Source: an uncultured Armatimonadia bacterium (GTDB lineage: Bacteria > Armatimonadota > Zipacnadia > CAZGSV01). Taken from it: DNA of 64,000 bases. Each line of letters starts with the position of its first letter. Positions within the stretch are counted from its first letter, which is position 1. Both the position numbers and the translations under genes were made by a program. A model generated the notes under the pieces. It made no database searches and was not told the origin of the DNA. It was given only the letters and a program-made list of their open reading frames with translations. Positions 1,980 to 53,072 of the stretch are shown one piece after another. The DNA lies in contig CAZGSV010000002.1 in the NCBI GenBank assembly GCA_964528605.1, positions 14,563-78,562 on the forward strand. The letters are read 5' to 3'.

Positions 1980-2366
1980 CTAGCCTAGCAGCGCCTTGAT
2001 CTTCTCGATGAGACCCTCGGCGCTGGCGAGGGATTCCTGCATTTCCTCGCGGCGCAGTTCGGACTCCGGCGTGCCCGGATACCGTTCCTCGAGGTAGTAC
2101 TCAGTGCTCTTCTGACACGCCGCTCGGAACTCCTCTAGGGAGGGCTCGTACGCGATGGCGTCGTCAAGGAGCGCCTCGAGATCGTGGATGCGGCGAAGCG
2201 CCCAGCCCTTGGAGAGCAGATAACCCTTCAGGTACTTCTCCATGGACTGCTGGATGTTGAAGCCCGCACCGATGAGGTCCTCGAGTGCGAGCAGGTTGCG
2301 CGCGCGCTGTAAGTCGCCCTCGGCGATGCGGAACCAGTGTGGCGGATGCAGGGAGTCCTTACGCAT
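1980..2366 (-). CDS. HEPN-domain protein, the toxin partner of the MNT nucleotidyltransferase.
   Basis: It has an internal ATG at 2366 (MRKDSLHPPHWFRIAEGDLQRARNLL...). The HEPN-like motif is ...KGWALRRIHDLEALLD. It overlaps the stop of the upstream MNT gene by 8 nt. The N-terminal 37 codons of the 1980..2477 track ORF overlap the MNT coding sequence and are probably not translated. Confidence 0.75.
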   Translation of the reverse strand: MRKDSLHPPHWFRIAEGDLQRARNLLALEDLIGAGFNIQQSMEKYLKGYLLSKGWALRRIHDLEALLDDAIAYEPSLEEFRAACQKSTEYYLEERYPGTPESELRREEMQESLASAEGLIEKIKALLG

Positions 2367-2691
2367 CGTACAGGACCACTCCCCCTCCGATGATCTCCTC
2401 CACGAACCCCTGGCGCACGACCAGTCGCTGCTCCAGTTCGCGCGGGGTGAGGACAATGGCGTCGAACGGCATGCCACGCCGCGCGTCGGAGACCAGACGC
2501 CTGACCGCCACCCTCCGGTCTATGGGCCGTTCGTCCGTCTCCTTGATGATGAGCAAGTCAATGTCGCTGTCGCGGTCGGGCGTGCCGTAAGCGTAGGAAC
2601 CGAAGAGGATGATCTTCTGCGGCTTGTAGGCGGCGACCAGCCTGTCAACGATCGCCTTGATGGTCTCGCCAACCTCGGTATCGGCCAGCAT
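2359..2691 (-). CDS. Minimal nucleotidyltransferase (MNT, Pol-beta superfamily), the antitoxin partner of HEPN.
   Basis: It has the GSYAYGTPDRDSDIDLLI nucleotidyltransferase motif. It is 110 aa and is translationally coupled to the downstream HEPN gene. Confidence 0.85.
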   Translation of the reverse strand: MLADTEVGETIKAIVDRLVAAYKPQKIILFGSYAYGTPDRDSDIDLLIIKETDERPIDRRVAVRRLVSDARRGMPFDAIVLTPRELEQRLVVRQGFVEEIIGGGVVLYDA

Positions 2692-17323: not shown

Positions 17324-18409
17324 CTATCCGTACTGCGCGACCAACTCGCTTATCCGGCGCAGCCGCTCGACCTCGGCGTCGGGAGGCGTGTTGTCGCCCA
17401 GGCCGATGACCACGCGCCCGGCTGCCTTGGCCATCTCCACGGTCTTCACGACGAAGTCCTCGAACTCCTGCTGCGTGGCCCCGTGGCAGAGCAGCGACGC
17501 CGGTATTGCCCCCTGAATCTTGATGTGGGGCGCGAGCGTCTCCAACGCCTGCTCCAGGCTCACGTCGCCCATGGGCTGCGGCGTGAAGGCCTCGATGATG
17601 TCAATCTCGGAGTCGTTTATCAGCGGCAGCAGCGGCTTGACGAAGCCGTCGAAGTGATACTGGTGCAACTTGCCGCGCGCGTGCAGGATGCGCCCGATCT
17701 CCTGAAAGGCCTCGAGCGCGTAGCGCTTGTACGACTCCGGCCCGATGACCTGCGCGTCCATGTTGCCGCCGGAGCAGACGACCTCGGCCGGGCCTTCCGC
17801 CGCGCAGCGGGCAACCCTGAGCGAGCGCTCATGCTCGGCGTGGAGGTAAGCCTCCAGTTGCTGGCGGTAGTCGGCCAGGGCATACGACAAGCCCACGACC
17901 CCCAGCGAGTACCAAGCCTGCATGATGGGGCAGGCGCTGAGCGTCGTGAGCGCAATGCCACCTTCCCCGACCGCCTTCTCCGCCTCCAAGAAGGACTCGC
18001 CATTCGGCTCGTAGTGAGAGGCCTCGGCGATGTAGGTGGCGACGCGCAGATCGCGAGGCCCCTTGACGAGAAACTCGACCCGCATGCGCGCCTGCGTGAA
18101 GTCGTGGCAGATGCGGTGCACCTCGCGCAGGGAGCCCACCGGCGTTTCGATGATAGTGATGACTTCCTCGCCGATCTCCTCGGTGCGCGATCTCACCTCA
18201 TTGGGCAGGCCCCGACACACCCCCGCTCTCTGCCACAGGCCGCAGCCGAGGTCCCGCTGGATGTCGTGCAACGGCCAGTCCCGGTACTTGGCGGGTATGG
18301 TGCCGCGAGCGCGGTTGACACCGTACCAGTGGTCCATGTTCGCCAGCCAAGGAACGTGGTCGGCGGGCCGGCCGCGGAAGATGGCGAAAACTCTCTCCTT
18401 GGTCGTCAT
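17324..18409 (-). CDS. Uroporphyrinogen decarboxylase (URO-D) family protein, MtaA/CmuA-like.
   Basis: The internal ATG at 18409 (MTTKERVFAIFRGRPADHVPW...) is typical of the URO-D family N-terminus. The product is 362 aa. Confidence 0.7.
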   Translation of the reverse strand: MTTKERVFAIFRGRPADHVPWLANMDHWYGVNRARGTIPAKYRDWPLHDIQRDLGCGLWQRAGVCRGLPNEVRSRTEEIGEEVITIIETPVGSLREVHRICHDFTQARMRVEFLVKGPRDLRVATYIAEASHYEPNGESFLEAEKAVGEGGIALTTLSACPIMQAWYSLGVVGLSYALADYRQQLEAYLHAEHERSLRVARCAAEGPAEVVCSGGNMDAQVIGPESYKRYALEAFQEIGRILHARGKLHQYHFDGFVKPLLPLINDSEIDIIEAFTPQPMGDVSLEQALETLAPHIKIQGAIPASLLCHGATQQEFEDFVVKTVEMAKAAGRVVIGLGDNTPPDAEVERLRRISELVAQYG

Positions 18410-18639
18410 AGGCGCCGATTCTAACCGGCCAAGTCCCGCCTCGCCACTCCTCACCGCCGACTGGCGACTGGCCGCTACCCCTATTGAGTCAGCGCGGCTA
18501 GCGCCCTATACTTGTGGTGGCCGTGCTAGACGGGGAATCGGCGACTCCCTGCCCCGCCTTTGGCGGGGAACCCGAGCGCCCAGCGGGGTCGAATTCCCGA
18601 CCGAGGGGCGAGCCGGTCAGGTCTGACTGAGGCAAGTGG

Positions 18640-18755
18640 CGTTGATGGCTGGGTCCTGCGCAACGAGCGCTCGCGAACCCCGTCAGGTCCGGAAGGAAGC
18701 AGCGGTAAGTGAGAATGCTCGTGTGCCGCAGGGGCGCCTGGCCGGAGCCAACTGC
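18640..18755 (+). ncRNA. ffs: Signal recognition particle RNA (4.5S/ffs, small bacterial type).
   Basis: The universally conserved domain IV motif GUCAGGUCCGGAAGGAAGCAGC is at 18682..18703, followed by GUGUGCCG. The 5' end (gttgatggctgggtcctgcgc) and 3' end (gcgcctggccggagccaac) can pair as helix 5. The length of ~115 nt matches E. coli 4.5S RNA. Confidence 0.6.
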
Positions 18756-18993
18756 TTCAGTAACGCTGCCCGGGGACCCTCGAAGCCGGGTGCACGGCCA
18801 TCAGTGCGAGTGGCGAGTGACCAGTAGCCAGTGATCAACGGACAGTGACCAGAGGGAGGGAAGGGCGCGGCGCGGAATTGCGCGTTCAAGTCTATAGGCG
18901 AGTGCAGCAAGCGGCCCTTCTTCGTCCGCTCTCGGCTGACCTTGCTCCGCGGGCCCACCTTGACCTCCCGCACTACCTGCTCAATCTCCGCCT

Positions 18994-20052
18994 TCAGGAC
19001 CGGATAGCACACCTGGAGGATCTCGCGGCCGCCGAGGTGGGAGTACTCGTGGACGATCGCCATCCGCGTTTGCCGGGCGGCCGAGCGGCCAGCGTGAGAG
19101 GTGGCTGCGCGTGCGTTGTCGGAGGCGACTTGGGCGACGCTGGTGCATAGATGGGCCGGTCCATGGGACGGGTCCGGAGAGTTCCGAGCGCCGCCTCGCG
19201 CAGCCTTTGGCGGGCAACCTCCACGTACTCAGGCACGATCTCCGCGCCGACCCCTCGTCTCCCATGCATAAGGGCGGCGGCCAACGTGGTGCCCACGCCC
19301 ATGAAGGGATCGAGCACCCAGTCGCCGGGCCGCGTCAGTGCAAGTATCAGCCGCTCCACTAGTTCCACCGGGAACTGACAGGGATGGATCGTCTTCTCAA
19401 CGTGGTTGTGCTTCACGTTCGGTATGACCCACACGTCTCCTGGGTTCTTACCGAGGGGATGGCTCGAGAGTTGCCCGGCCTTAGGACCCTTGAAGTACTT
19501 TTTCCGAGGGTACTTCTGCGGCACCCGGATCGCGTCCAGGTTGAAGTGGTACTGGTCGCCCTTGGTAAACCAGAGGATGTTCTCGTAGCGCCCTGAGAGC
19601 CGCTTGGAGCAGTGGAGGCCGTGTTCGAAGTGCCACACTATGCGATTGCGGAGCCTGAAACCGAGTTCCTGGAAGATGGGGTACAAGAGTATGTCGAGGG
19701 GGACTATCTCATTCCGGTCAACGTAGTTGCCGACCTGCCAGCAGATGCTGCCGTCCGCGCGCACCGCGCGGGCGCATTCGCGGATCACTTCCTCCTGCTG
19801 CGCGACATATGTGTCCAGCCTCAAGCGCCGCTCATACGGCTTGCCCAGGTTGTAGGGGGGAGAGGTGATCACCAGGGCTAGAGTCTCTGAGGGGATGGTC
19901 CGCAGGAGCGCTCTGCAGTCACCTTGGAACACGACCAGGTCGGCCGAGCCGTCGAACCGGTCGAGTACCGGAGGCCATTCCGGAGACGGATTGCCAGGAA
20001 ACGCCAGCCGCTCGCCCATGGCCGCGATTATAGCACCGGCGGGCGCGGGCAC
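18994..20052 (-). CDS. DNA methyltransferase (N4-cytosine/N6-adenine, beta class, PF01555-like). It is apparently an orphan.
   Basis: It has the catalytic motif IV SPPY (LVITSPPYNLGK) and the SAM motif VLDPFMGVGTTLAAAL. No restriction endonuclease gene is adjacent. The C-terminal ~60 codons are low-complexity and may be read-through. Confidence 0.8.
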   Translation of the reverse strand: MPAPAGAIIAAMGERLAFPGNPSPEWPPVLDRFDGSADLVVFQGDCRALLRTIPSETLALVITSPPYNLGKPYERRLRLDTYVAQQEEVIRECARAVRADGSICWQVGNYVDRNEIVPLDILLYPIFQELGFRLRNRIVWHFEHGLHCSKRLSGRYENILWFTKGDQYHFNLDAIRVPQKYPRKKYFKGPKAGQLSSHPLGKNPGDVWVIPNVKHNHVEKTIHPCQFPVELVERLILALTRPGDWVLDPFMGVGTTLAAALMHGRRGVGAEIVPEYVEVARQRLREAALGTLRTRPMDRPIYAPASPKSPPTTHAQPPLTLAARPPGKRGWRSSTSTPTSAAARSSRCAIRS

Positions 20053-20140: not shown

Positions 20141-20232
20141 GGAGAGGTGGCTGAGCGGCCGAAAGCGCCCGACTCGAAATCGGGTGGTGGGGTCAAAAGC
20201 CTCACCCGTGGGTTCGAATCCCACCCTCTCCG
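20141..20232 (+). tRNA. tRNA-Ser (anticodon CGA), class II with a long variable arm. CCA is encoded at 20233..20235.
   Basis: The acceptor is GGAGAGG/CCTCTCC, the anticodon stem-loop is CCCGA-CUCGAAA-UCGGG, the T-arm is GTGGG-TTCGAAT-CCCAC and the discriminator is G. Confidence 0.85.
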
Positions 20233-20412: not shown

Positions 20413-20504
20413 GGAGAGGTGTCCGAGTTGGTCTAAGGAACGTGACTGGAAATCGCGTAGGCGGGTTAACCCCTGCCTCGTGGGTTCGAATCCCACCCTC
20501 TCCG
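20413..20504 (+). tRNA. tRNA-Ser (anticodon GGA), class II. CCA is encoded.
   Basis: The acceptor is GGAGAGG/CCTCTCC, the anticodon loop is CUGGAAA, the T-arm is GTGGG-TTCGAAT-CCCAC and the discriminator is G, followed by CCA. Confidence 0.85.
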
Positions 20505-29569: not shown

Positions 29570-30388
29570 ATGTGGCGGCCCGCATTGATCGCGCTTGACC
29601 TTGACGACACGTTGCTCAACAGCGAGGGCTGCGTCTCACCGCGTTCCGCCGCCGCGGTCAGGGCCGCGGCGCGCGAGGGCCGCCGTGTGGTGGTGGCCAC
29701 GGGCTCGATGCACCATCGCGCGGCGGCGTTTGCCAACGAGTTGGGCGTTCCCGGGCCGGTCATCTCCTACAATGGGGCCATGCTCCGCGAATCGGACGGC
29801 TCGTGGACGTATCACCATCTGCCGCTGACGCCGGAGCAGGCCGCGGCGGTGCTGCGCTTCGCTGATGGGCACGGCGTGCACGCGAACGTCTACGTGGACG
29901 ACGTGCTCTACATTCGCCAGTGCAACCAGTGGTCCGAACTGTACCGCTCCCGCCATCATCCGCAGATGGTCGAGTGTCCCAACATCGAGGAACTCACGGC
30001 TCGGAGCCCCACCAAGATTCTGCTTATCGCCGAGCCCGCAACCATCGCCCGCTTGGAGACAGAGGGCCGGGCGGAGTTCCCCGGCCTCTACGTGACGCGC
30101 TCCAAGCAGGACTATCTGGAGTTCGTCAACCCGCAGGCGAGCAAGGGGAAGGCGCTCCGAGTGCTGACGGAGCAAGTGCTAGGCTTGAGCGCGGATCAGG
30201 TGATGGCGATCGGCGACGCCTACAACGACATTGATATGATCGAGTACGCGGGCCTGGGCGTCGCACCGGCGAACGCGCATCCCGAGGTCCGCGCTCGCGC
30301 CGCGCACGTATGCGCCTCGAATGATGAGGACGGCCCCGCCATCGCCATCGAGGCCGTGCTGGCAGGGGCATTGCAGCCCGGCGCGTAA
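29570..30388 (+). CDS. Cof-type HAD-IIB family hydrolase.
   Basis: Motif I is LIALDLDDTLL, and the C-terminus has GDAYNDIDM (motif IV). Confidence 0.85.
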   Translation: MWRPALIALDLDDTLLNSEGCVSPRSAAAVRAAAREGRRVVVATGSMHHRAAAFANELGVPGPVISYNGAMLRESDGSWTYHHLPLTPEQAAAVLRFADGHGVHANVYVDDVLYIRQCNQWSELYRSRHHPQMVECPNIEELTARSPTKILLIAEPATIARLETEGRAEFPGLYVTRSKQDYLEFVNPQASKGKALRVLTEQVLGLSADQVMAIGDAYNDIDMIEYAGLGVAPANAHPEVRARAAHVCASNDEDGPAIAIEAVLAGALQPGA

Positions 30389-30438
30389 GGGCGTGCGGCT
30401 ATACGCACCTACGTCTTGAGACCGAGCGCCGCTGATGC

Positions 30439-31677
30439 CTAGCCTCTGCGGCGGGTGGCGGGCCTCCTCGTCGCTGCCGGCTTCTTGGTAACCCGCTTCT
30501 TGGCTAGCGGCTTCTTGGTGACCCGCTTCTTGGTCGCGGGCTTCTTCGCTTCCGCCTCCGCGCGCGCCTGCCTGAGCCTCGAGCGCACGGCCCGGGGCGC
30601 GAAGGAGAGGCGCGGGTACGAACCGTAGCTGCCGTAGTAGTAGACCAACTCTATGGTGCGGCAGTAGCGCTTGAAGGAGACGTTGTCCGGGACCGAGTGG
30701 TCGGAATGGTAGATGTAACCGCCGCCGTACTTGGCGTAGGGAATCTTGGTGGCGATCTCCTGCTCGATGGCCCCAGGGTCGTCGCTGGCCATGGCGCGCA
30801 CGTCTATCCCGCCCATGAACGCCATGCGGTCGCCGAAGTTGCGCTTGAGTTCTATCAGGTCCATTCCCGCCTTGACCTCGAGGGGCTGCAGGCAGTCGAA
30901 GCCGGCCTCGACTAGTTGCGGCACCAGTTCGCGCACGCGCCCGCAGGAATGCAGGATGACCGGCAGGCCCTTGCTGTGCGAGAAGTCGCAGAACCGCTTG
31001 TGGGCAGGCAGCAGCAGTTCGCGGTAGCAACGCGGGGAGAACAGAGAGGCGTTGCGGTAGCCCATGTCGTCGTAGACGAAACTGGCGTCGAACACGAACC
31101 CCCTGTCCAGCATCTCGCCCAAGGATTCGATGAGCATCTGAGTGGCGGTGTCGAACATGTCCTTGACCCAGGCGGGGTCGTCGAGCATGGCCATGAGCAG
31201 GTTCTGGGAACCGACAATGCCTTGCGTCTTGTCGTAGCCGAAGGCGCCGCCGTAGGTGATGAAGTGCCCTTCGCGGCGCATGCGCTTGTTGGCCTTGAGG
31301 CCGTTCCAGTCCACCCGGGACTCGTTCCAGGCAAGCCGCGGCTTGTGCTCCTCCCACGTCTTGCGGTCCTTGATGGTGAACTGGAAGTACTCCGGGGTGG
31401 AGGTCGCGTGCTTCCAGTTCTTGGCCAGCGCGCCTTGGGCGTTGCGCACGACGGTGTACTCGCCGGTTTCCTCCACGGTTTCCGAGGGGAACTGGAAGGA
31501 GGTATCGGCGCCGTGGCCCCGGAACTCGTAGTCGAAGTATTCGCCCGGCCCCAGGTTCTTGGGCAAGCCCTCTTCGTGCCAGCGGCGCACGGTCGTGCCC
31601 CAGGGCGCGTCGGTAATGCCCACTCGGTCGGCTTCCTGGTGGCGCAGCGCCCGCAGAATGCGTTCGCGAGAGGTCAA
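30439..31677 (-). CDS. URO-D family protein (MtaA/CmuA-like) with a C-terminal lysine-rich KKPxTKKRVT repeat tail.
   Basis: The N-terminus MTSRERILRALRHQEADRVG is typical of URO-D. The tail is AKKPATKKRVTKKPLAKKRVTKKPAATRRPATRRRG. Confidence 0.7.
   Translation of the reverse strand: MTSRERILRALRHQEADRVGITDAPWGTTVRRWHEEGLPKNLGPGEYFDYEFRGHGADTSFQFPSETVEETGEYTVVRNAQGALAKNWKHATSTPEYFQFTIKDRKTWEEHKPRLAWNESRVDWNGLKANKRMRREGHFITYGGAFGYDKTQGIVGSQNLLMAMLDDPAWVKDMFDTATQMLIESLGEMLDRGFVFDASFVYDDMGYRNASLFSPRCYRELLLPAHKRFCDFSHSKGLPVILHSCGRVRELVPQLVEAGFDCLQPLEVKAGMDLIELKRNFGDRMAFMGGIDVRAMASDDPGAIEQEIATKIPYAKYGGGYIYHSDHSVPDNVSFKRYCRTIELVYYYGSYGSYPRLSFAPRAVRSRLRQARAEAEAKKPATKKRVTKKPLAKKRVTKKPAATRRPATRRRG
30481..30555. 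repeat. 15-bp tandem coding repeat (CTTCTTGGNNNCCCG, 5 copies) encoding the KKxxT basic tail.
   Basis: The copies are cttcttggtaacccg / cttcttggctagcgg / cttcttggtgacccg / cttcttggtcgcggg / cttcttcgcttccgc. Confidence 0.6.
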
Positions 31678-47287: not shown

Positions 47288-48487
47288 TCAGGCCTCCGGC
47301 GGGATGAAACCGAAGTAGCGGCCCGACCAGTAGGCGCGCAGGAAGTACCTAGGCACGCCCTCCAACACGACCTCCACCATCCGCTCCTTGCCCGGAAGCC
47401 CCAGGAGCGACGCAGGAAAGGCCTGAACCGAGGAACTGTACTTGGGCACTTCGTGCAGGTACGGCCTCTTCGCCCGCTCGCGCGTGGCCGGCCGACGCGC
47501 CAGCGTGTAGTCGAAGTCACTGACCTCGAATGAATGCAGCCACTCCCAAGTCTCCTCCGCAATGGGCGCCCTGGGGTGAAAGGCCTTGTAGGTCCAGTTG
47601 AAGAGCGCGTCGTGCATATGCCTGGCGCGCGAGCCTCGCCACTGGGCCTGCAGCGCCCGATAGTAGTAGCGAAGGAGCCCGGGATCCGTCTCGTAGCAGA
47701 GGAGAGTGTACAGAGGGCACATGGCGAGGTTGTAGTCCCACTCGGACGGCTCGGGGTTCGTCTCCGTGTTGGCGCGCGCGGCGATCTTGTGGTAGCCCCA
47801 CTCTTGGATCAGACGCTGGTACTCCCTCAGGTAGCCTCGCTTCTTGGTGATCTGGTAAGCGCCGCGCAGATGGCTCAGGGCCTGCAAGGCGTTGAGATTC
47901 TCTTCTAGTACTAGCGGCGACATGTTGCCCCAAAGGGTCATGCGCCCGTCCACGTCCACGATGCGCATGCCCTGGTCCACGATGCGGCGCATGACGAGGT
48001 CCACGTCCTTGGCTATCTGGCGCTTCTCCTTCGCGTCGGCCACCAGGTCGCAGTAGAGTTCGTAGCCGAACATCAGGCCGACGAGAGAATCCGTGCTCGG
48101 GTCGCCCAACCAGCGGTATTCGCCCGCCTGATGCCACTCGCGCGGAAAGAAGAAGGCCTGCTCGTCCCAGGTGGCCCCGTTGCCACGCTTGAAGCCGCGC
48201 GCAAAGCAGCCGTCCGTGCGCGTGACGCGCTGGAGCATGCGCAGCGCGCGAGCGGCCGTGCGAGCGCGCTCCTTCGCCTTGGGATCCCTCGTCGCTGCCC
48301 AACGGAAGGCCTGAGTCGCGAGATACATCCCGGTCGAGAGCGCGTCGCTTTCGTGGTTGCCGGTGGAGTAGTCCGGCAAACCGATCGGCGGCAACACCAC
48401 TAGGGCTCGAATCTGCCCCTGGTAGGTATGACGCTCCTCGAGCATCGCCTCGCACAACATAGCCTTCTCATAGAGAGTCATGGGCAT
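47288..48487 (-). CDS. Uncharacterised conserved protein, paralog A of a four-copy tandem array (399 aa).
   Basis: It shares the blocks MxxTLYEKAxLCEA, LPPxGLPDYSTGNHExDA, FFFPREWHQAG, YRWxGDPSTDSL, VDVDGRMTLWGNM, YYRALxxQW and LRAYWSGRYFGFIPPEA with the three other paralogs. Confidence 0.8.
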   Translation of the reverse strand: MPMTLYEKAMLCEAMLEERHTYQGQIRALVVLPPIGLPDYSTGNHESDALSTGMYLATQAFRWAATRDPKAKERARTAARALRMLQRVTRTDGCFARGFKRGNGATWDEQAFFFPREWHQAGEYRWLGDPSTDSLVGLMFGYELYCDLVADAKEKRQIAKDVDLVMRRIVDQGMRIVDVDGRMTLWGNMSPLVLEENLNALQALSHLRGAYQITKKRGYLREYQRLIQEWGYHKIAARANTETNPEPSEWDYNLAMCPLYTLLCYETDPGLLRYYYRALQAQWRGSRARHMHDALFNWTYKAFHPRAPIAEETWEWLHSFEVSDFDYTLARRPATRERAKRPYLHEVPKYSSSVQAFPASLLGLPGKERMVEVVLEGVPRYFLRAYWSGRYFGFIPPEA

Positions 48488-48635
48488 CCCGCCACCTCAC
48501 AGGGCCCGGGCCCGCAGGTTAGGTCGCGGCAGCCGCGTCGTGGGTAAACCGCGACGCTACCGGGCGTTGGCAACACATCCGCGTCGTGGGTGCACCACGA
48601 CGCTACCGCCAGGATGGAAAGGTTCGGGCCAGCGC

Positions 48636-49790
48636 TCAGGCCTCCGGCGAGATGAAGCCGAAGTAGCGGCCGGACCAGTAGGCGCGCAGAAAGGCTCGCG
48701 GCACTACCTCGGATACCGCCTCGATGACCTTGCGCTTGCCGTTGACCACAAGTTCGAACTTGCGCTCCTGCACCGGCGGCTTGAGGGCGTCCGCCGTGAC
48801 CTTGGCCGGGAACTCCCGCGCCCCTAGGTCCGTCGTCTCCAGCCACTGCCAGGCCTCCGCCCGCATGGGCGCCCGCGGATGGAGCGCCTTGTAGACCACG
48901 TTGAAGAAGGCGTCGTTGGGGCCGTTCGCGTAGGTGCGCTTCCACTGCACCTCCAGAGCGCGATAGTAGTAGCGCAGCAAGTCCCCGTCGGCCTCGTAAC
49001 GGAGGAGCGAGTAGAGGGGCGAGACCGCCAGATTCCAGTCGTGAACCGCGGGCGGCGGGTCGTCCTGCGCATTGGCCAGCGCGGCCCTCTTATGGTAGTC
49101 CCACCCGTCAATCAGGCGGTGATACTCGTCCAGGTAGCGCCGCTTTTTGGTGATGTGATGGGCGGCGCGCAGGTGGCTGAGGGCCTGAAGCGCGTTCAGG
49201 TTCTCCTCGAGAATGTAGGGGTTCATGTTGCCCCACAGCGTCATGCGCCCGTCCACATCGAGCACGCGCATGCCGTTGTCCACGACGTGGCCCATGATGA
49301 GGTCCACGTCCTTGGCGACCTCGGCCTTCTCCTTGGCGTCGGCGACCAGGTCGTGGTACTGCTCGTAGCCGGACATTAGGCCCACGAGGGAATCGGTGCT
49401 GGGGTCCCCGACCCAGCGATACTTCCCGGCCTGATACCACTCACGCGGGAAGAAGAAGAACTGCTCGTCCCAAGTAGGGCCGTCGGCGCGCTTGAAGCCG
49501 CGCGCGAAGCAGCCCTTGCTACCGGTGAGGCGCTGCAGTTTGCGCAGCGCCCGCGCCACCGCTTTCGCTTGGCGCTTGGCCCGCGGATCCTTGGTCGCGG
49601 CCCAGCGGAAGGAGAGAGCCTCTAGATACATCCCGGTGGCCAGGGCATCGCTCTCGTGGTTGCCGGTGGAGTAGTCCGGCAGCCCCGCCGGCGGCAGGAT
49701 GACCTGCTGCCTAACCTGCCCCTCGTAGTAGTGCCTCCCCTGGACCAGGGCCTCGCACAGTATCGCCTTCTGGTAAAGAGTCAGAGCCAT
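48636..49790 (-). CDS. Uncharacterised conserved protein, paralog B (384 aa).
   Basis: It is colinear with A, C and D at about 55-65% identity by eye. Confidence 0.8.
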   Translation of the reverse strand: MALTLYQKAILCEALVQGRHYYEGQVRQQVILPPAGLPDYSTGNHESDALATGMYLEALSFRWAATKDPRAKRQAKAVARALRKLQRLTGSKGCFARGFKRADGPTWDEQFFFFPREWYQAGKYRWVGDPSTDSLVGLMSGYEQYHDLVADAKEKAEVAKDVDLIMGHVVDNGMRVLDVDGRMTLWGNMNPYILEENLNALQALSHLRAAHHITKKRRYLDEYHRLIDGWDYHKRAALANAQDDPPPAVHDWNLAVSPLYSLLRYEADGDLLRYYYRALEVQWKRTYANGPNDAFFNVVYKALHPRAPMRAEAWQWLETTDLGAREFPAKVTADALKPPVQERKFELVVNGKRKVIEAVSEVVPRAFLRAYWSGRYFGFISPEA

Positions 49791-49990
49791 TCTCTCACCT
49801 CATGATTCTCGGTTCGGTGGTTTGCCGTCGCGGGTAAACCGCGACGCTACCGACATGCGCGAGCGGATGCTGCACAAACTCCTTACAGGCGGACGCAGAA
49901 CAGCCACACCGAATCACGCACGAGGCGAATGGCTGCCTCCCTCGGTGCTCCGCGCCACAAGCCAGAGCGGGTACGCCGGGGTCAGACGAC

Positions 49991-50206
49991 CTACCGCGCT
50001 GCGACTAAGTTCTCCAGATGGATCTGCTTGTCCCTCAGGCCGGGGATGACCTCGCTGGCATCGAGAACCTCGATCCCCACCACCCGCTCCCCGGGCCCAA
50101 TGTCAACGGCAACCTGGTCGTTGAGCCGGATAACCTGACACTCGGTCGGCTCCTCGACAAACCGAATGTAGAGCGCGTCCACCGAGGGGTCGTAGGTTAT
50201 CTTCAC
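49991..50206 (-). CDS. DUF2283 family protein, the antitoxin partner of DUF4258.
   Basis: MKITYDPSVDALYIRF... is the canonical DUF2283 N-terminus. It is 71 aa and lies immediately downstream of the DUF4258 gene. Confidence 0.75.
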   Translation of the reverse strand: MKITYDPSVDALYIRFVEEPTECQVIRLNDQVAVDIGPGERVVGIEVLDASEVIPGLRDKQIHLENLVAAR

Positions 50207-50221
50207 GGCTCGCTCACTTCC

Positions 50222-50485
50222 TCAGAAGTAGTATACATGGACCGTGACCACCGTGCATTCGCCGCGCTCCAGAACCACAATAGGCGCCACCTGCTTGACC
50301 GCGCACCACTTCCCACGCCACAGGGCATTGAGCGGGAAGTTCTTGCGAAACATCACGCGGCCCTTGCGGCAGGCCTCGGGCTCTCCTTGGCGTATCGCGG
50401 TGATGACGTCCTCCTCCGAGGCTCCCCGATCAGCCATTCTGACGCGGGCGTGCGGGCTGATCTCTATTGTCACGTCGGCGCTCAA
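50222..50485 (-). CDS. DUF4258 family protein, the toxin of a DUF4258/DUF2283 TA pair.
   Basis: It has HARVRMADRG...VITAI and a C-terminal VVTVHVYY, which is the DUF4258 pattern. It is 87 aa. Confidence 0.7.
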   Translation of the reverse strand: MSADVTIEISPHARVRMADRGASEEDVITAIRQGEPEACRKGRVMFRKNFPLNALWRGKWCAVKQVAPIVVLERGECTVVTVHVYYF

Positions 50486-50523
50486 GGCCTCGCCTCACAA
50501 CACGGCGGGAGAACGACTCACGC

Positions 50524-51678
50524 CTACGCCTCCGGCGGGATGAAGCCGTGATAGCGGCCCATCCAGTACGCGCGCAAGTACCCCGTTGGCGCGCCCTCGA
50601 CCACACCTTCAATCACCCGCGGCCGGCCGTCAATGACCACCTCGAACTTGCGCCTGTGCGCGATGGGCTTAGGAGCGCTCGGCGTCGGTGAACCGGGATG
50701 CTCCGGCTCGCCGATCTCAAAGGCGTGCAGCCAGTCCCAGGTCTGCTTGCGAATGGGAGCGCGCGGGCGCAGCGCCTTGTAGGCCCAGTTGTAGAAGGGA
50801 TCGTCGCGCCCAGCCGCCTGCACGCCCTTCCACTGCACCTCTAACGCGCGGTAGTAGTGGCGGAGCAGGCTCTCGTCCTTCTCGTATTGCAGTAAGAGGT
50901 AGAGAGGGCACGTGGCCAGATTCCAGTCCCAGGGCGAGGGCACCGGAGAGGCCTGCGCGTTCGCCAGGGCCGCCTTCTTATGGTAGTCCCACTTCTCGAT
51001 CAGCCGACGATACTCCCGTAGGAAGAGGCGGTTCTTGGTCATGTGATAGGCGCCCCGGAGGTGGCTGAGCGCCTCCAGCGCGTTCAGATTCTCCTCCAGT
51101 ATGTAGGGGTTCATGTTCCCCCACAGCGTCAAGCGGCCGTCCACGTCCACGATGCGCATCCCCTTCTCCACGATGCGGCCCATGAAGCCCTCGACGTCCT
51201 TCGCCACTTCCTTCTTCTCCTTCGCGTCGGCGACGAGGTCGTAGTACAGTTCGTAGCCGAACATCAGCCCGACCAGCGAGTCGGTGCTCGGATCGCCCAC
51301 CCAGCGATAGTTGCCGGCCTGGTGCCACTCGCGCGGGAAGAAGAAGACCTGCTCGTCCCAGGTCGGCTTGTCGGCGCGCTTGAACCCGCGCGCGAAGCAG
51401 CCTCTGACCCCCGTTACCTGCTGCAACTTCCGCAGGGCGCGCGCGGCCTCTTGCGCGCGTTGCTTTGCCTTGGGCTCACGCGTGACCGCCCAGCGGAAGG
51501 ATTCGGTCCCCAGATAAGTTCCTGTCGAGATCGCATCGTCCTCGTGGTTGCCGGTGGAGAAGTCGGGCAGCCCGGCGGGCGGCAGGATGACGTGATTGCG
51601 CACCTGTCCCTGGTACCCGTGCCGTTCCTCCATTACCGCCTCGCACAGCAGCGCCTTCTCGTACAGACTGAGAGCCAT
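50524..51678 (-). CDS. Uncharacterised conserved protein, paralog C (384 aa).
   Basis: It has the same conserved blocks as paralogs A, B and D. Confidence 0.8.
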   Translation of the reverse strand: MALSLYEKALLCEAVMEERHGYQGQVRNHVILPPAGLPDFSTGNHEDDAISTGTYLGTESFRWAVTREPKAKQRAQEAARALRKLQQVTGVRGCFARGFKRADKPTWDEQVFFFPREWHQAGNYRWVGDPSTDSLVGLMFGYELYYDLVADAKEKKEVAKDVEGFMGRIVEKGMRIVDVDGRLTLWGNMNPYILEENLNALEALSHLRGAYHMTKNRLFLREYRRLIEKWDYHKKAALANAQASPVPSPWDWNLATCPLYLLLQYEKDESLLRHYYRALEVQWKGVQAAGRDDPFYNWAYKALRPRAPIRKQTWDWLHAFEIGEPEHPGSPTPSAPKPIAHRRKFEVVIDGRPRVIEGVVEGAPTGYLRAYWMGRYHGFIPPEA

Positions 51679-51917
51679 CTTGTCACCTCGTAGTGCGGAT
51701 GATTGCGGCCGACGGGCGGCACTGTAGCGCCGCAGACGGTGTCTTTCAAGGCGGTCGTGGGGATGTATGGCCCGCCCCTACTTCCGCGGCGCCGCCAGGG
51801 GCCGCTGCGCAGGGGCGAGGCGCCTGCCTCACCCGCTGTCCTGTAGGAGCGGCATTCTTGTTCACCCGCCTCAGGAGGGCCCCCAGTTCGCAGCGGCGAG
51901 CCGTGGGCTGGCGCGCG

Positions 51918-53072
51918 CTAGGCGTCGGCAGGTATGAACCCGTGGTAGCGGCCCATCCAGTACGCGCGCAGATACGGGGTGGGCGCCCCCTCGACCGCCG
52001 CCTCGATCACCTGCACCTTGCCGCCCACCTCCAACTCGAAGCGCTGCTTCCTGTCCACCAGCGGCGGCGTAAACGGGCTGGGTGAGCCCGGGTGTTCCGG
52101 GTCCCCAGGTTCATAGTCACGCAGCCACTGCCAGGACTCCTTCGGGATGGGCGCCTCCGGGCGATAGGCCTTGTATGCCCAGTTGAAGAAGGGGTCACGC
52201 AGGTGCTCGCGCCGCACCCCGCGCCACTGGATCTCCAACGACCGGCGGTAGTAGGCGAGCAGGCTTGAGTCGGTCTCATACTTCAGCAGCGGGTAAAGGA
52301 TGGACATCGCCAGGTTCCAGTCCCACGGCGACTCGCCTGGCTCCTTGTTCGCATTGGCGCGCCCCGCCCTCTCGTGATAGCCAAAGTCCCGGATCAAGCG
52401 GTGGTACTCCTGCGGGAAGCGGCGCTTCTTGGTGATGTGGTAGGCGCTGCGGAGGAAACTCAACGGCTCCAGCGCGTTCAGGTCTTCCTCAAGGATGACC
52501 GGACACATGTTGCCCCACATGGTCATGCGCCCGTCTGCATCCACGATGCGCATGTTGGCGTCCACGATCTTCCCCATGATGAGGTCAACGTCCTTGGCCA
52601 CTTGCGCTTTTTCCTTCGCATCCGCGACCAGATCGTAGTAGAGCGCATATCCGAAGATGATGCCGGCGAGGGAGTCAGTCATGGCGTCACCCACCCAGCG
52701 GTACTCGCCCGCTTGGTGCCACTCGCCCGGATAGTAGAAGAACTGCTCATCCCAACTGGGGCCCCGGCCGCGCTTGAAGCCGCAAGCGAAGGCGCCGTCG
52801 CTGCCGGTGATGCGCTGCAGTTCGCGCAGCGCCCGCGCCGTCTGCCGCGCGCGTCGCCTGGTCGCAGCATCCTTAGTGACGGCCCAGCGGAAGGACAGGA
52901 CGCCTAGGTAGGTGCCGGTGGAAATGGCGTCGTCTTCGTGGTTGCCGGTGGAGTAGTCGGGCAGCCCGACGGGAGGCAGGAGCACGTGGGTTCTGACCTG
53001 CCCCTCGTAGTTGTGCCGCTCGTCCATTACCGCTTCGCAGTGCAGCGCCTTCTCGTAAAGCGTGTGGGCCAT
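51918..53072 (-). CDS. Uncharacterised conserved protein, paralog D (384 aa).
   Basis: It has the same conserved blocks. It is closest to paralog C in the C-terminal third (GDPEHPGSPxP). Confidence 0.8.
   Translation of the reverse strand: MAHTLYEKALHCEAVMDERHNYEGQVRTHVLLPPVGLPDYSTGNHEDDAISTGTYLGVLSFRWAVTKDAATRRRARQTARALRELQRITGSDGAFACGFKRGRGPSWDEQFFYYPGEWHQAGEYRWVGDAMTDSLAGIIFGYALYYDLVADAKEKAQVAKDVDLIMGKIVDANMRIVDADGRMTMWGNMCPVILEEDLNALEPLSFLRSAYHITKKRRFPQEYHRLIRDFGYHERAGRANANKEPGESPWDWNLAMSILYPLLKYETDSSLLAYYRRSLEIQWRGVRREHLRDPFFNWAYKAYRPEAPIPKESWQWLRDYEPGDPEHPGSPSPFTPPLVDRKQRFELEVGGKVQVIEAAVEGAPTPYLRAYWMGRYHGFIPADA

Follow-up and report, generated by a model that had tools for sequence, protein, structure and literature searches.

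A fast-evolving, lysine-rich C-terminal tail on an MtaA-like UroD-superfamily protein of an uncultured Armatimonadia bacterium

Basic low-complexity tails are familiar features of proteins and are well known on DNA-binding proteins. The KPAA tail of Pseudomonas AlgP associates with polyphosphate granules, C-terminal-domain fragments and KPAA peptides of the protein bind DNA in vitro, and the tail is a mutational hot spot, the repeats of which vary between isolates (PMC9239181). The PAKKA repeats of Ku and Hlp also bind DNA and evolve rapidly, and they were proposed to have "evolved repeatedly" (PMC3553676). The UroD superfamily includes UROD, MetE, and many corrinoid methyltransferases (PMC10418091), and in our literature search no report was found of a lysine-rich tail on one of its members. 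Here we describe such a tail on a UroD-superfamily protein encoded on the reverse strand of a 64,000-nucleotide stretch of contig CAZGSV010000002.1 (hereafter, the window), which derives from an uncultured Armatimonadia bacterium (assembly GCA_964528605.1). The tail is real, in frame, polycationic, specific to this gene, hypervariable, and repeatedly gained, and its charge and composition persist even as the sequence changes freely. The novelty of the finding is mostly descriptive.

The original prediction, made from the letters of the window alone, was that a 412-aa URO-D protein ends in an in-frame, repeat-encoded lysine-rich stretch, and the open reading frame (ORF) at 30439..31677 does end exactly as quoted there (...AKKPATKKRVTKKPLAKKRVTKKPAATRRPATRRRG; longer excerpt, ...AEAKKPATKKRVTKKPLAKKRVTKKPAATRRPATRRRG). 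About 95% of the homologs are 351–355 residues long and end at ...YG(S/T)Y; the window protein runs 61 residues further. The added residues fall into two parts. The proximal part is conserved only in the clade of tailed proteins to which the window protein belongs, with the pattern GSYP(R/V)xSF(A/S)PxAVR(S/T)RL(R/K) being common to the window protein and its closest homologs (P0001–P0004), and includes a predicted helix at residues 361–377, where the predicted local distance difference test score (pLDDT) of the AlphaFold2 (AF2) model is about 60–67. The distal 34 residues, of which 26% are Lys, 21% Arg, 15% Ala, 15% Thr, and 12% Pro, have a net charge of +16 and are predicted to be intrinsically disordered (pLDDT <50 at residues 383–412). 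With a charge of +21 on a core of -5, the whole tail flips the full protein from about -5 to +16. Of the distal-tail residues, 26.5% are lysine, as compared with 2.9% in the 39 other predicted window proteins, in DNA with 66% G+C. The tail is the sole K-rich 30-aa stretch among the window ORFs of at least 80 aa, and no K/R-rich stretch was found in other genes of the window or of 16 related loci (L001–L016; ~230 kb examined).

The tandem repeat within the tail is described by Tandem Repeats Finder either with a period of 15 bp and 4.7 copies (76% matches; score, 77) or, better, with a period of 30 bp and 2.3 copies (90% matches; score, 106). In the protein, the array reads KKPATKKRVT, KKPLAKKRVT, and a degenerate KKPAATRRPA followed by TRRRG, the 10-aa unit being KKPxxKKRVT. 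The octamer CTTCTTGG occurs four times at an exact 15-bp phase (positions 30481, 30496, 30511, and 30526); it is expected 1.63 times in the whole window and is observed 11 times, a count reached in none of 100 shuffles. The repeat predicted from the sequence is real, but the number of five CTTCTTGGNNNCCCG units given for it was slightly generous, as the array comprises four exact cores and a single CTTCTTCG. The tail contains no KPAA or PAKKA unit and is spanned by no Pfam or NCBIfam family, and a database query with the 65-aa tail alone returned nothing at E ≤ 1e-3. An NCBIfam match to ValRS (E 0.004; 15 vs 1783 bits) was taken as compositional.

Like AlgP/PhaF of Pseudomonas, the window protein possesses a K/P/A-containing, (predicted) disordered C-terminal tail that is made from short in-frame tandem repeats and varies between isolates. 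The AlgP tail, however, is ~154 residues long, is built from a 4-aa unit, and belongs to a DNA-binding protein, whereas the distal window tail has 34 residues, a 10-aa unit, about as much Arg as Lys, and 15% Thr, and is borne by an enzyme core. Mycobacterial Hlp/HupB, Mycobacterium smegmatis Ku, and Deinococcus HU share with it a lineage-restricted lysine-rich extension that evolves faster than the core and is absent from close homologs; these carriers bind DNA, and the tails modulate that binding, whereas the window core has no known nucleic-acid function. The window tail resembles the H1-like tails in kind, not in membership.

The tail was predicted to be variable in length, as is seen in orthologs that are ~97% identical in DNA. 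In the comparison with locus L015 (protein P0121; 88-kb contig from JGI), 78–90 of each 90 nt, mostly at least 86, are identical over nt 1–1170 of the gene, whereas the last 87 alignment columns contain 44 matches and 18 gaps. The L015 tail is 6 aa longer and largely different in its distal part (40 vs 34 residues, counted from K379), and the second 30-bp unit is missing from this allele; the duplication is seen only in the lineage of the window and P0001. The indels separating the two tails, of 18, 3, 7, 1, and 3 nt, jointly restore the frame. The L015 allele is also found in L016 and L039, and the allele of L014 (P0001) is that of the window apart from three distal-tail substitutions (five when all of residues 352–412 are counted); the length variation is thus that between two alleles. 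The ratio of non-synonymous to synonymous substitution rates (dN/dS) is ~1.3 in the tail (7 non-synonymous and 2 synonymous changes) as compared with 0.2–0.3 in the core. The spacer between the URO-D gene and the adjacent HAD hydrolase gene is indel-rich, with 50 bp in the window (30389..30438) vs ~190 bp in L015 (7258..7447), and because it differs in the otherwise 97%-identical L015, the hypervariable zone reaches past the coding tail. In one JGI sample (Ga0315289), the L017 contig stops at residue 367 and the L039 contig begins at residue 340, both within the linker/tail; such breaks would be expected where strain variants entangle the assembly graph, and they suggest that co-existing tail alleles fragment the assembly at the tail.

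In a neighbour-joining tree of 121 homologs, the window protein and P0001–P0004 (78–97% identical) form a single group. All five members have basic tails, with charges of +16 to +21 over 49–61 residues, the distal sequences of which are not alignable. P0002 and P0003 have no tandem repeat in their tails, so that the repeat must be the younger feature, a secondary in-frame duplication within an existing tail. The tail is thus more than a local repeat expansion: a basic tail with a conserved proximal segment of ~27 aa predates the repeat and is found clade-wide, down to 78% identity, with most of these orthologs having no tandem repeat at all. The basic tail is present in the same frame in independent contigs, at least seven in number, that derive from ENA, JGI, NCBI, and Logan (L014, L015, L016, L039, L001, L009, and P0004), which answers the concern, voiced with the prediction, that the tail might be out of frame in the correct assembly.

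Such a tail had been called unfamiliar on a URO-D fold. It is rare, but the window clade is not alone in having one. When 1.8 billion cluster representatives were searched exhaustively, 8,858 family members were retrieved. P0042 (58% identity) has a non-homologous 69-aa tail with a charge of +25 and a repeat of its own (5.3 copies of 18 bp or, read differently, 2.4 copies of 36 bp, with units KRS(T/A)A(A/P)). Its nearest relatives, P0071, P0073, and P0065, are all untailed, and the DNA homology between the P0042 and P0071 loci ends at the P0071 stop codon; the P0042 tail is an independent gain. When read-through into the 3' flank of the untailed relative was tested as a possible origin of this tail, the homology simply ended at that stop codon. 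A third tailed group, among the best 150 of the 8,858 family members, comprises P0126, P0135, and P0167, mutually 52–60% identical, with again non-homologous, K/E/P-rich tails of 76–234 aa that carry KK-hydrophobic-FG-KK motifs (e.g., KKKKFGFGRKK and SVFGFLKGKKK); those of P0126 and P0167 end with ...KKSVFGFLKGKKK and ...KKKKFKLPFGKK, respectively. These motifs resemble the amphipathic membrane-targeting sequence of MinD, and the purpose of the tail in this third clade may differ from that of the window tail. Within the subfamily, which has ~3,000 database homologs, lysine-rich tails of unrelated sequence originated on no fewer than three occasions; the named homologs of the enzyme are mostly from Armatimonadota. 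A scan of genome contigs yielded six loci, none of them tailed. Fusion with a small basic gene was ruled out as the origin of the tail, there being no small basic ORF downstream at the untailed loci, and so was compensation for an acidic core, because the tailed cores have charges of -1 to -9 vs a mean of -13.8 for the untailed ones.

Pfam PF01208 (URO-D) matches residues 156–343 of the window protein (E 1e-19; 71.3 bits vs a gathering cut-off of 23.9). In the AF2 model, built with 121 homologs as input (overall pLDDT, 89; predicted template modelling score, 0.83), residues 1–350 have pLDDT >90, and the N-terminal 150 residues of the core include an extra five-strand β region. The best PDB match in Foldseek is MtaA, the zinc-dependent methylcobamide:coenzyme M methyltransferase of Methanosarcina mazei (PDB ID: 4ay7; E 6e-12; template modelling (TM) score, 0.60/0.72; structure-based identity, 16%), followed by HemE structures and then MetE; the top 26 PDB matches are all MtaA or UROD structures with a probability of 1.00 and TM scores up to 0.72. 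MtaA is also the sole match in a family-profile search of PDB sequences. The NCBIfam scores are nevertheless below the cut-offs for TIGR01463 (MtaA/CmuA; 59.7 vs 235.4 bits) and NF040654 (MtaA equivalog; 44.2 vs 400 bits), and TIGR01464 (hemE equivalog) gives no match with the tailed protein and 15.9 vs 302.95 bits with a distant URO-D paralog in the window. Because these curated cut-offs are missed, the protein is filed neither as MtaA/CmuA nor as HemE.

Whether a single sequence or a profile is used for the search, the H243-S-C245-G246 motif, a candidate metal site, falls opposite the H-I-C-G zinc motif of MtaA (4ay7). Neither H243 nor G246 varies among the 121 homologs; C245 is kept in 118 of them and replaced by Asp in the other three. 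Near the C-terminal end of the barrel, D326, H327, and S328 of the H324-S-D-H-S328 motif are invariant and H324 occurs in 119 of the 121 homologs; this motif aligns with the "NLGHG" segment of HemE. The region of the downstream Cys zinc ligand of MtaA was reached by neither the single-sequence nor the profile alignment, and the H324-S-D-H-S328 motif may be regarded only as a candidate for the third metal ligand.

In its likeness to MtaA (4AY7/4AY8; TIGR01463), the window protein thus combines the best fold match and the sole PDB profile match with an aligned H-x-C-G position, and at three loci, genes of untailed relatives have MtaB, B12-binding, MttB, or RACo genes as neighbours. It differs from MtaA in sequence (16% identity), in its low score against the MtaA/CmuA model, in the extra N-terminal five-strand β region, and in the basic tail, which MtaA lacks. 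HemE/UROD shares the Pfam family and the TIM-barrel fold, but the window protein has neither a match to the hemE model nor a heme-pathway neighbour, and its H-x-C motif is typical of metal-dependent alkyl transferases, not of HemE. The MtaA-like proteins (Mlps) of mlp clusters are defined by >25% identity to a characterised coenzyme M methyltransferase (Kountz and Balskus, PMC10418091). These are UroD-superfamily proteins of non-methanogens encoded beside corrinoid proteins, as in the related locus L012, whereas the window protein has ~16% identity and its gene lies outside such a cluster. The MtaA/CmuA-type assignment originally proposed is therefore favoured over HemE by structure, motif, and the context of relatives, though not at the level of the curated cut-off, and the description adopted here is that of an uncharacterised, MtaA-like UroD-superfamily protein.

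The corrinoid context is found among untailed relatives. The closest of these, P0005 (70% identity), is encoded in a cluster (L012, 410..9730) of genes for an MtaB-like protein, a URO-D + B12-binding fusion, a B12-binding protein, and a URO-D protein, together with an aldo-keto reductase with Fe-S domains, an NIR_SIR protein, and two more URO-D genes. As an observation in its own right, L012 is a candidate corrinoid methyltransferase system of an uncultured bacterium with four URO-D-domain genes. In L002 (5998..8501), from a metagenome-assembled genome labelled Planctomycetota, the gene of a 58%-identical homolog with H-S-D-G in place of H-S-C-G is directly followed by an MttB-family methyltransferase gene, and in L004 that of a 52%-identical homolog is two genes away from the corrinoid activator RACo. 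Linkage of this kind is present at L012, L002, and L004 and not at L010, L006, and L001. A Pfam scan of 49 window ORFs revealed no corrinoid gene, nor was there any heme or tetrapyrrole biosynthesis gene, as the original prediction had it. By analogy with the untailed relatives, the enzyme is probably a component of corrinoid-dependent methyl transfer.

We propose, at about an even chance of being right, that the window protein is an MtaA-like enzyme with a clade-specific two-part extension, the distal part of which is a fast-evolving electrostatic tether to a polyanion. In one small clade, the C-terminus would have been extended by ~60 residues past the ancestral end ...YGSY, with the extension composed of the clade-conserved segment of ~27 aa with its predicted helix and of the disordered K/R/P/A/T stretch. 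The distal stretch would be retained for charge and composition, not for sequence, and would turn over through small indels and through in-frame duplications of the slippage type. The 30-bp x 2.3 repeat would represent one such event; with turnover this fast, near-identical strains would come to carry different alleles. In the TIM-barrel topology, the end of the last helix generally lies opposite the catalytic face. The tail of the window protein would likewise leave the barrel from the last helix, on the side opposite the active site. In view of the charge flip from -5 to +16 and of this exit, a non-specific polyanion tether is considered the most likely role. Such a tether would concentrate the enzyme on a cellular polyanion. 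The leading candidate is nucleic acid or the nucleoid, ahead of polyphosphate, both being targets known from experiments on H1-like KPAA/PAKKA tails; the membrane would be a further candidate. We infer the binding target, the benefit to the cell, and the catalytic activity of the tailed protein. It is also conceivable, though we think it unlikely, that the recurrent gain of tails reflects a genuine need of this MtaA-like subfamily to act at a polyanionic surface (nucleoid/RNA, polyphosphate granules, or membrane). If so, the substrate or methyl acceptor of the enzyme would be located there, and taken to its limit, this reading would have a UroD-fold enzyme handle, as its substrate, a methyl group bound to nucleic acid or another polymer.

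Several observations weigh against the polyanion tether. The tail is richer in Arg and Thr and much shorter (34 aa) than the AlgP and H1 tails and has none of their KPAA/PAKKA units; the core is not nucleic-acid-binding, unlike almost all characterised carriers of such tails; and most homologs work without a tail. The KK-hydrophobic-FG-KK motifs of the third clade point to the membrane, not to nucleic acid, and the tailed gene of the window adjoins no corrinoid gene, so that its enzymatic role is assigned by analogy. Moreover, dN/dS near 1 and rapid indel turnover are also expected of a tolerated, essentially functionless low-complexity extension, arising when a stop codon is lost or shifted, inflated and deflated by slippage, and harmless on the non-catalytic face. 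This explanation, to which we assign a minor share of the probability, would fit the tail dN/dS of ~1.3, the multiple indels and ~50% column identity between strains that are 97% identical elsewhere, the likewise indel-rich 3' intergenic DNA, the untailed state of ~95% of the homologs, and the lack of a database homolog for the tail sequence. It fits less well with the nine-fold enrichment of lysine against the GC-driven amino-acid bias, or with the charge of +16 to +21 and the open frame kept by every allele and clade member despite non-triplet indels. The proximal 27 aa, conserved down to 78% identity, also speak against it, as do the at least three independent origins of lysine-rich tails in this subfamily and in no other gene of the ~230 kb.

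The tail might instead be a peripheral membrane anchor, its polybasic stretch holding the enzyme to anionic phospholipids at the inner face of the cytoplasmic membrane. The repeated KK-(hydrophobic)-FG-KK motifs in the P0126 and P0167 tails and the charge reversal of the whole protein, which would favour an anionic surface, are consistent with this role; the window tail itself, however, has no aromatic and three aliphatic residues in 34 aa, with a proline every 6–10 residues, and would form no amphipathic helix. As a polybasic stretch without a hydrophobic or lipid anchor is usually a weak membrane binder, and the known MtaA-type enzymes are soluble, we regard a membrane anchor as rather unlikely. 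Still more doubtful, and entirely speculative, is an electrostatic "fly-casting" arm for an acidic partner such as a corrinoid protein, which would replace operon linkage or fusion. It would suit the isolated position of the tailed-clade gene between RtcB or DUF6785 and the HAD hydrolase, with untailed relatives lying inside corrinoid clusters, one of which includes a covalent URO-D + B12-binding fusion. No partner was identified in the window, however, sequence-unconstrained tails seldom give specific protein recognition, and the close untailed relatives of P0042 are also outside corrinoid clusters. That the tail is an artefact of assembly or annotation, produced by a frameshift or a chimeric contig while the protein really ends at ...YGSY, is effectively refuted. 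Assemblies can be broken by repeats and by strain heterogeneity, and two contigs of one sample do end here; but seven or more independent contigs show the same frame and the same proximal sequence, the TGA that ends untailed P0071 (...YGSY) corresponds to sense codons in tailed P0042, and the window continues uninterrupted from YGSY to GSYPR.... An encapsulin, microcompartment, or PEP-CTERM-type sorting signal was ruled out by reading the sequence in the light of general knowledge, as the tail has no hydrophobic helix or motif of that kind.

The features of the locus are listed in Table 1. The N-terminus MTSRERILRAL... that follows from the TTG start codon is conserved across >100 homologs, whereas the copy in NCBI (P0123; 394 aa; on an 89.5-kb contig) was called from a GTG inside the gene (V19), with no other difference from the window protein. 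Since the upstream TTG restores the conserved N-terminus (31624..31677, reverse strand), the deposited annotation of P0123 is probably 18 codons short. The stop codons of the tailed gene and the HAD hydrolase gene are 50 bp apart, and their convergent layout is also seen in L015, L016, and L001. The gene order of L015 is that of the window over the retrieved part (RelA, HEAT, RtcB, URO-D, HAD, AAA_16, GT4, VTT, and ceramidase). In the tailed clade, the gene is solitary, flanked by RtcB or DUF6785 on one side and the HAD hydrolase on the other. The second URO-D paralog of the original prediction is present and has no tail, but its longest ORF spans 17324..18454, not 17324..18409; it is 20% identical to the tailed protein (BLASTP E 1e-6).

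Table 1. Positions of the tailed gene, its parts, and related or adjacent genes in the window
Feature	Position	Strand	Basis
Tailed UroD-superfamily coding sequence (412 aa + stop)	30439..31677	-	ORF list; TTG start at 31677
Catalytic core, aa 1-351; UroD/MtaA-type TIM barrel with N-terminal beta-rich elaboration	30625..31677	-	Pfam PF01208, AF2, Foldseek
H243-S-C245-G246 motif, candidate metal (Zn) site	30940..30951	-	Homolog conservation and alignment to 4ay7
H324-S-D326-H327-S328 motif near C-terminal end of barrel	30694..30708	-	Homolog conservation
Proximal tail, aa 352-378 (GSYPRLSFAPRAVRSRLRQARAEAEAK)	30544..30624	-	Conserved in tailed clade only
Distal polycationic tail, aa 379-412	30442..30543	-	Composition, AF2
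In-frame tandem repeat (units 30517..30546, 30487..30516, and degenerate 30457..30486)	30477..30546	-	Tandem Repeats Finder
Cof-type HAD hydrolase, convergent conserved neighbour	29570..30388	+	Pfam Hydrolase_3, E 2e-53
Distant untailed URO-D-family paralog, 376 aa	17324..18454 (longest ORF)	-	Pfam URO-D, E 1.7e-10

Elsewhere in the window, four tandem paralogous ORFs on the reverse strand (47288..53072) encode an expanded family with 60–67% pairwise identity and no Pfam match, one of 399 aa (47288..48487) and three of 384 aa each (48636..49790, 50524..51678, and 51918..53072). A large-type bacterial signal recognition particle RNA is located at 18521..18797 on the forward strand (175 bits), and the ORF that overlaps it (18683..19063, reverse strand) is probably spurious. 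Two 92-nt tRNAs are encoded at 20141..20232 and 20413..20504, both on the forward strand. With release factor 1 as a marker for the phylum, four close relatives (70–99% identity) were retrieved; the next matches, at 59% identity or less, came from many phyla, and the organism is treated as a member of a sparsely sampled lineage. A HEPN-domain protein is encoded at 1980..2477 on the reverse strand (Pfam E 1e-23), and in L009 a nucleotidyltransferase/HepT pair comes directly after the gene for P0003, a tailed ortholog; toxin–antitoxin-type genes are thus scattered in these genomes.

In practical terms, the publicly annotated start codon probably truncates the protein, and contigs are broken at the tail during assembly. 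No major concept is changed by the finding, whichever way the function of the tail is decided. If the tail is not functional, the locus would be a tidy case of the birth and turnover of low-complexity extensions on bacterial proteins. A functional tail would illustrate clearly how, in nature, a disordered appendage that acts by charge only and evolves through repeat slippage can re-localise a metabolic enzyme, and would provide a handle on the cellular site of a large, completely uncharacterised MtaA-like subfamily.

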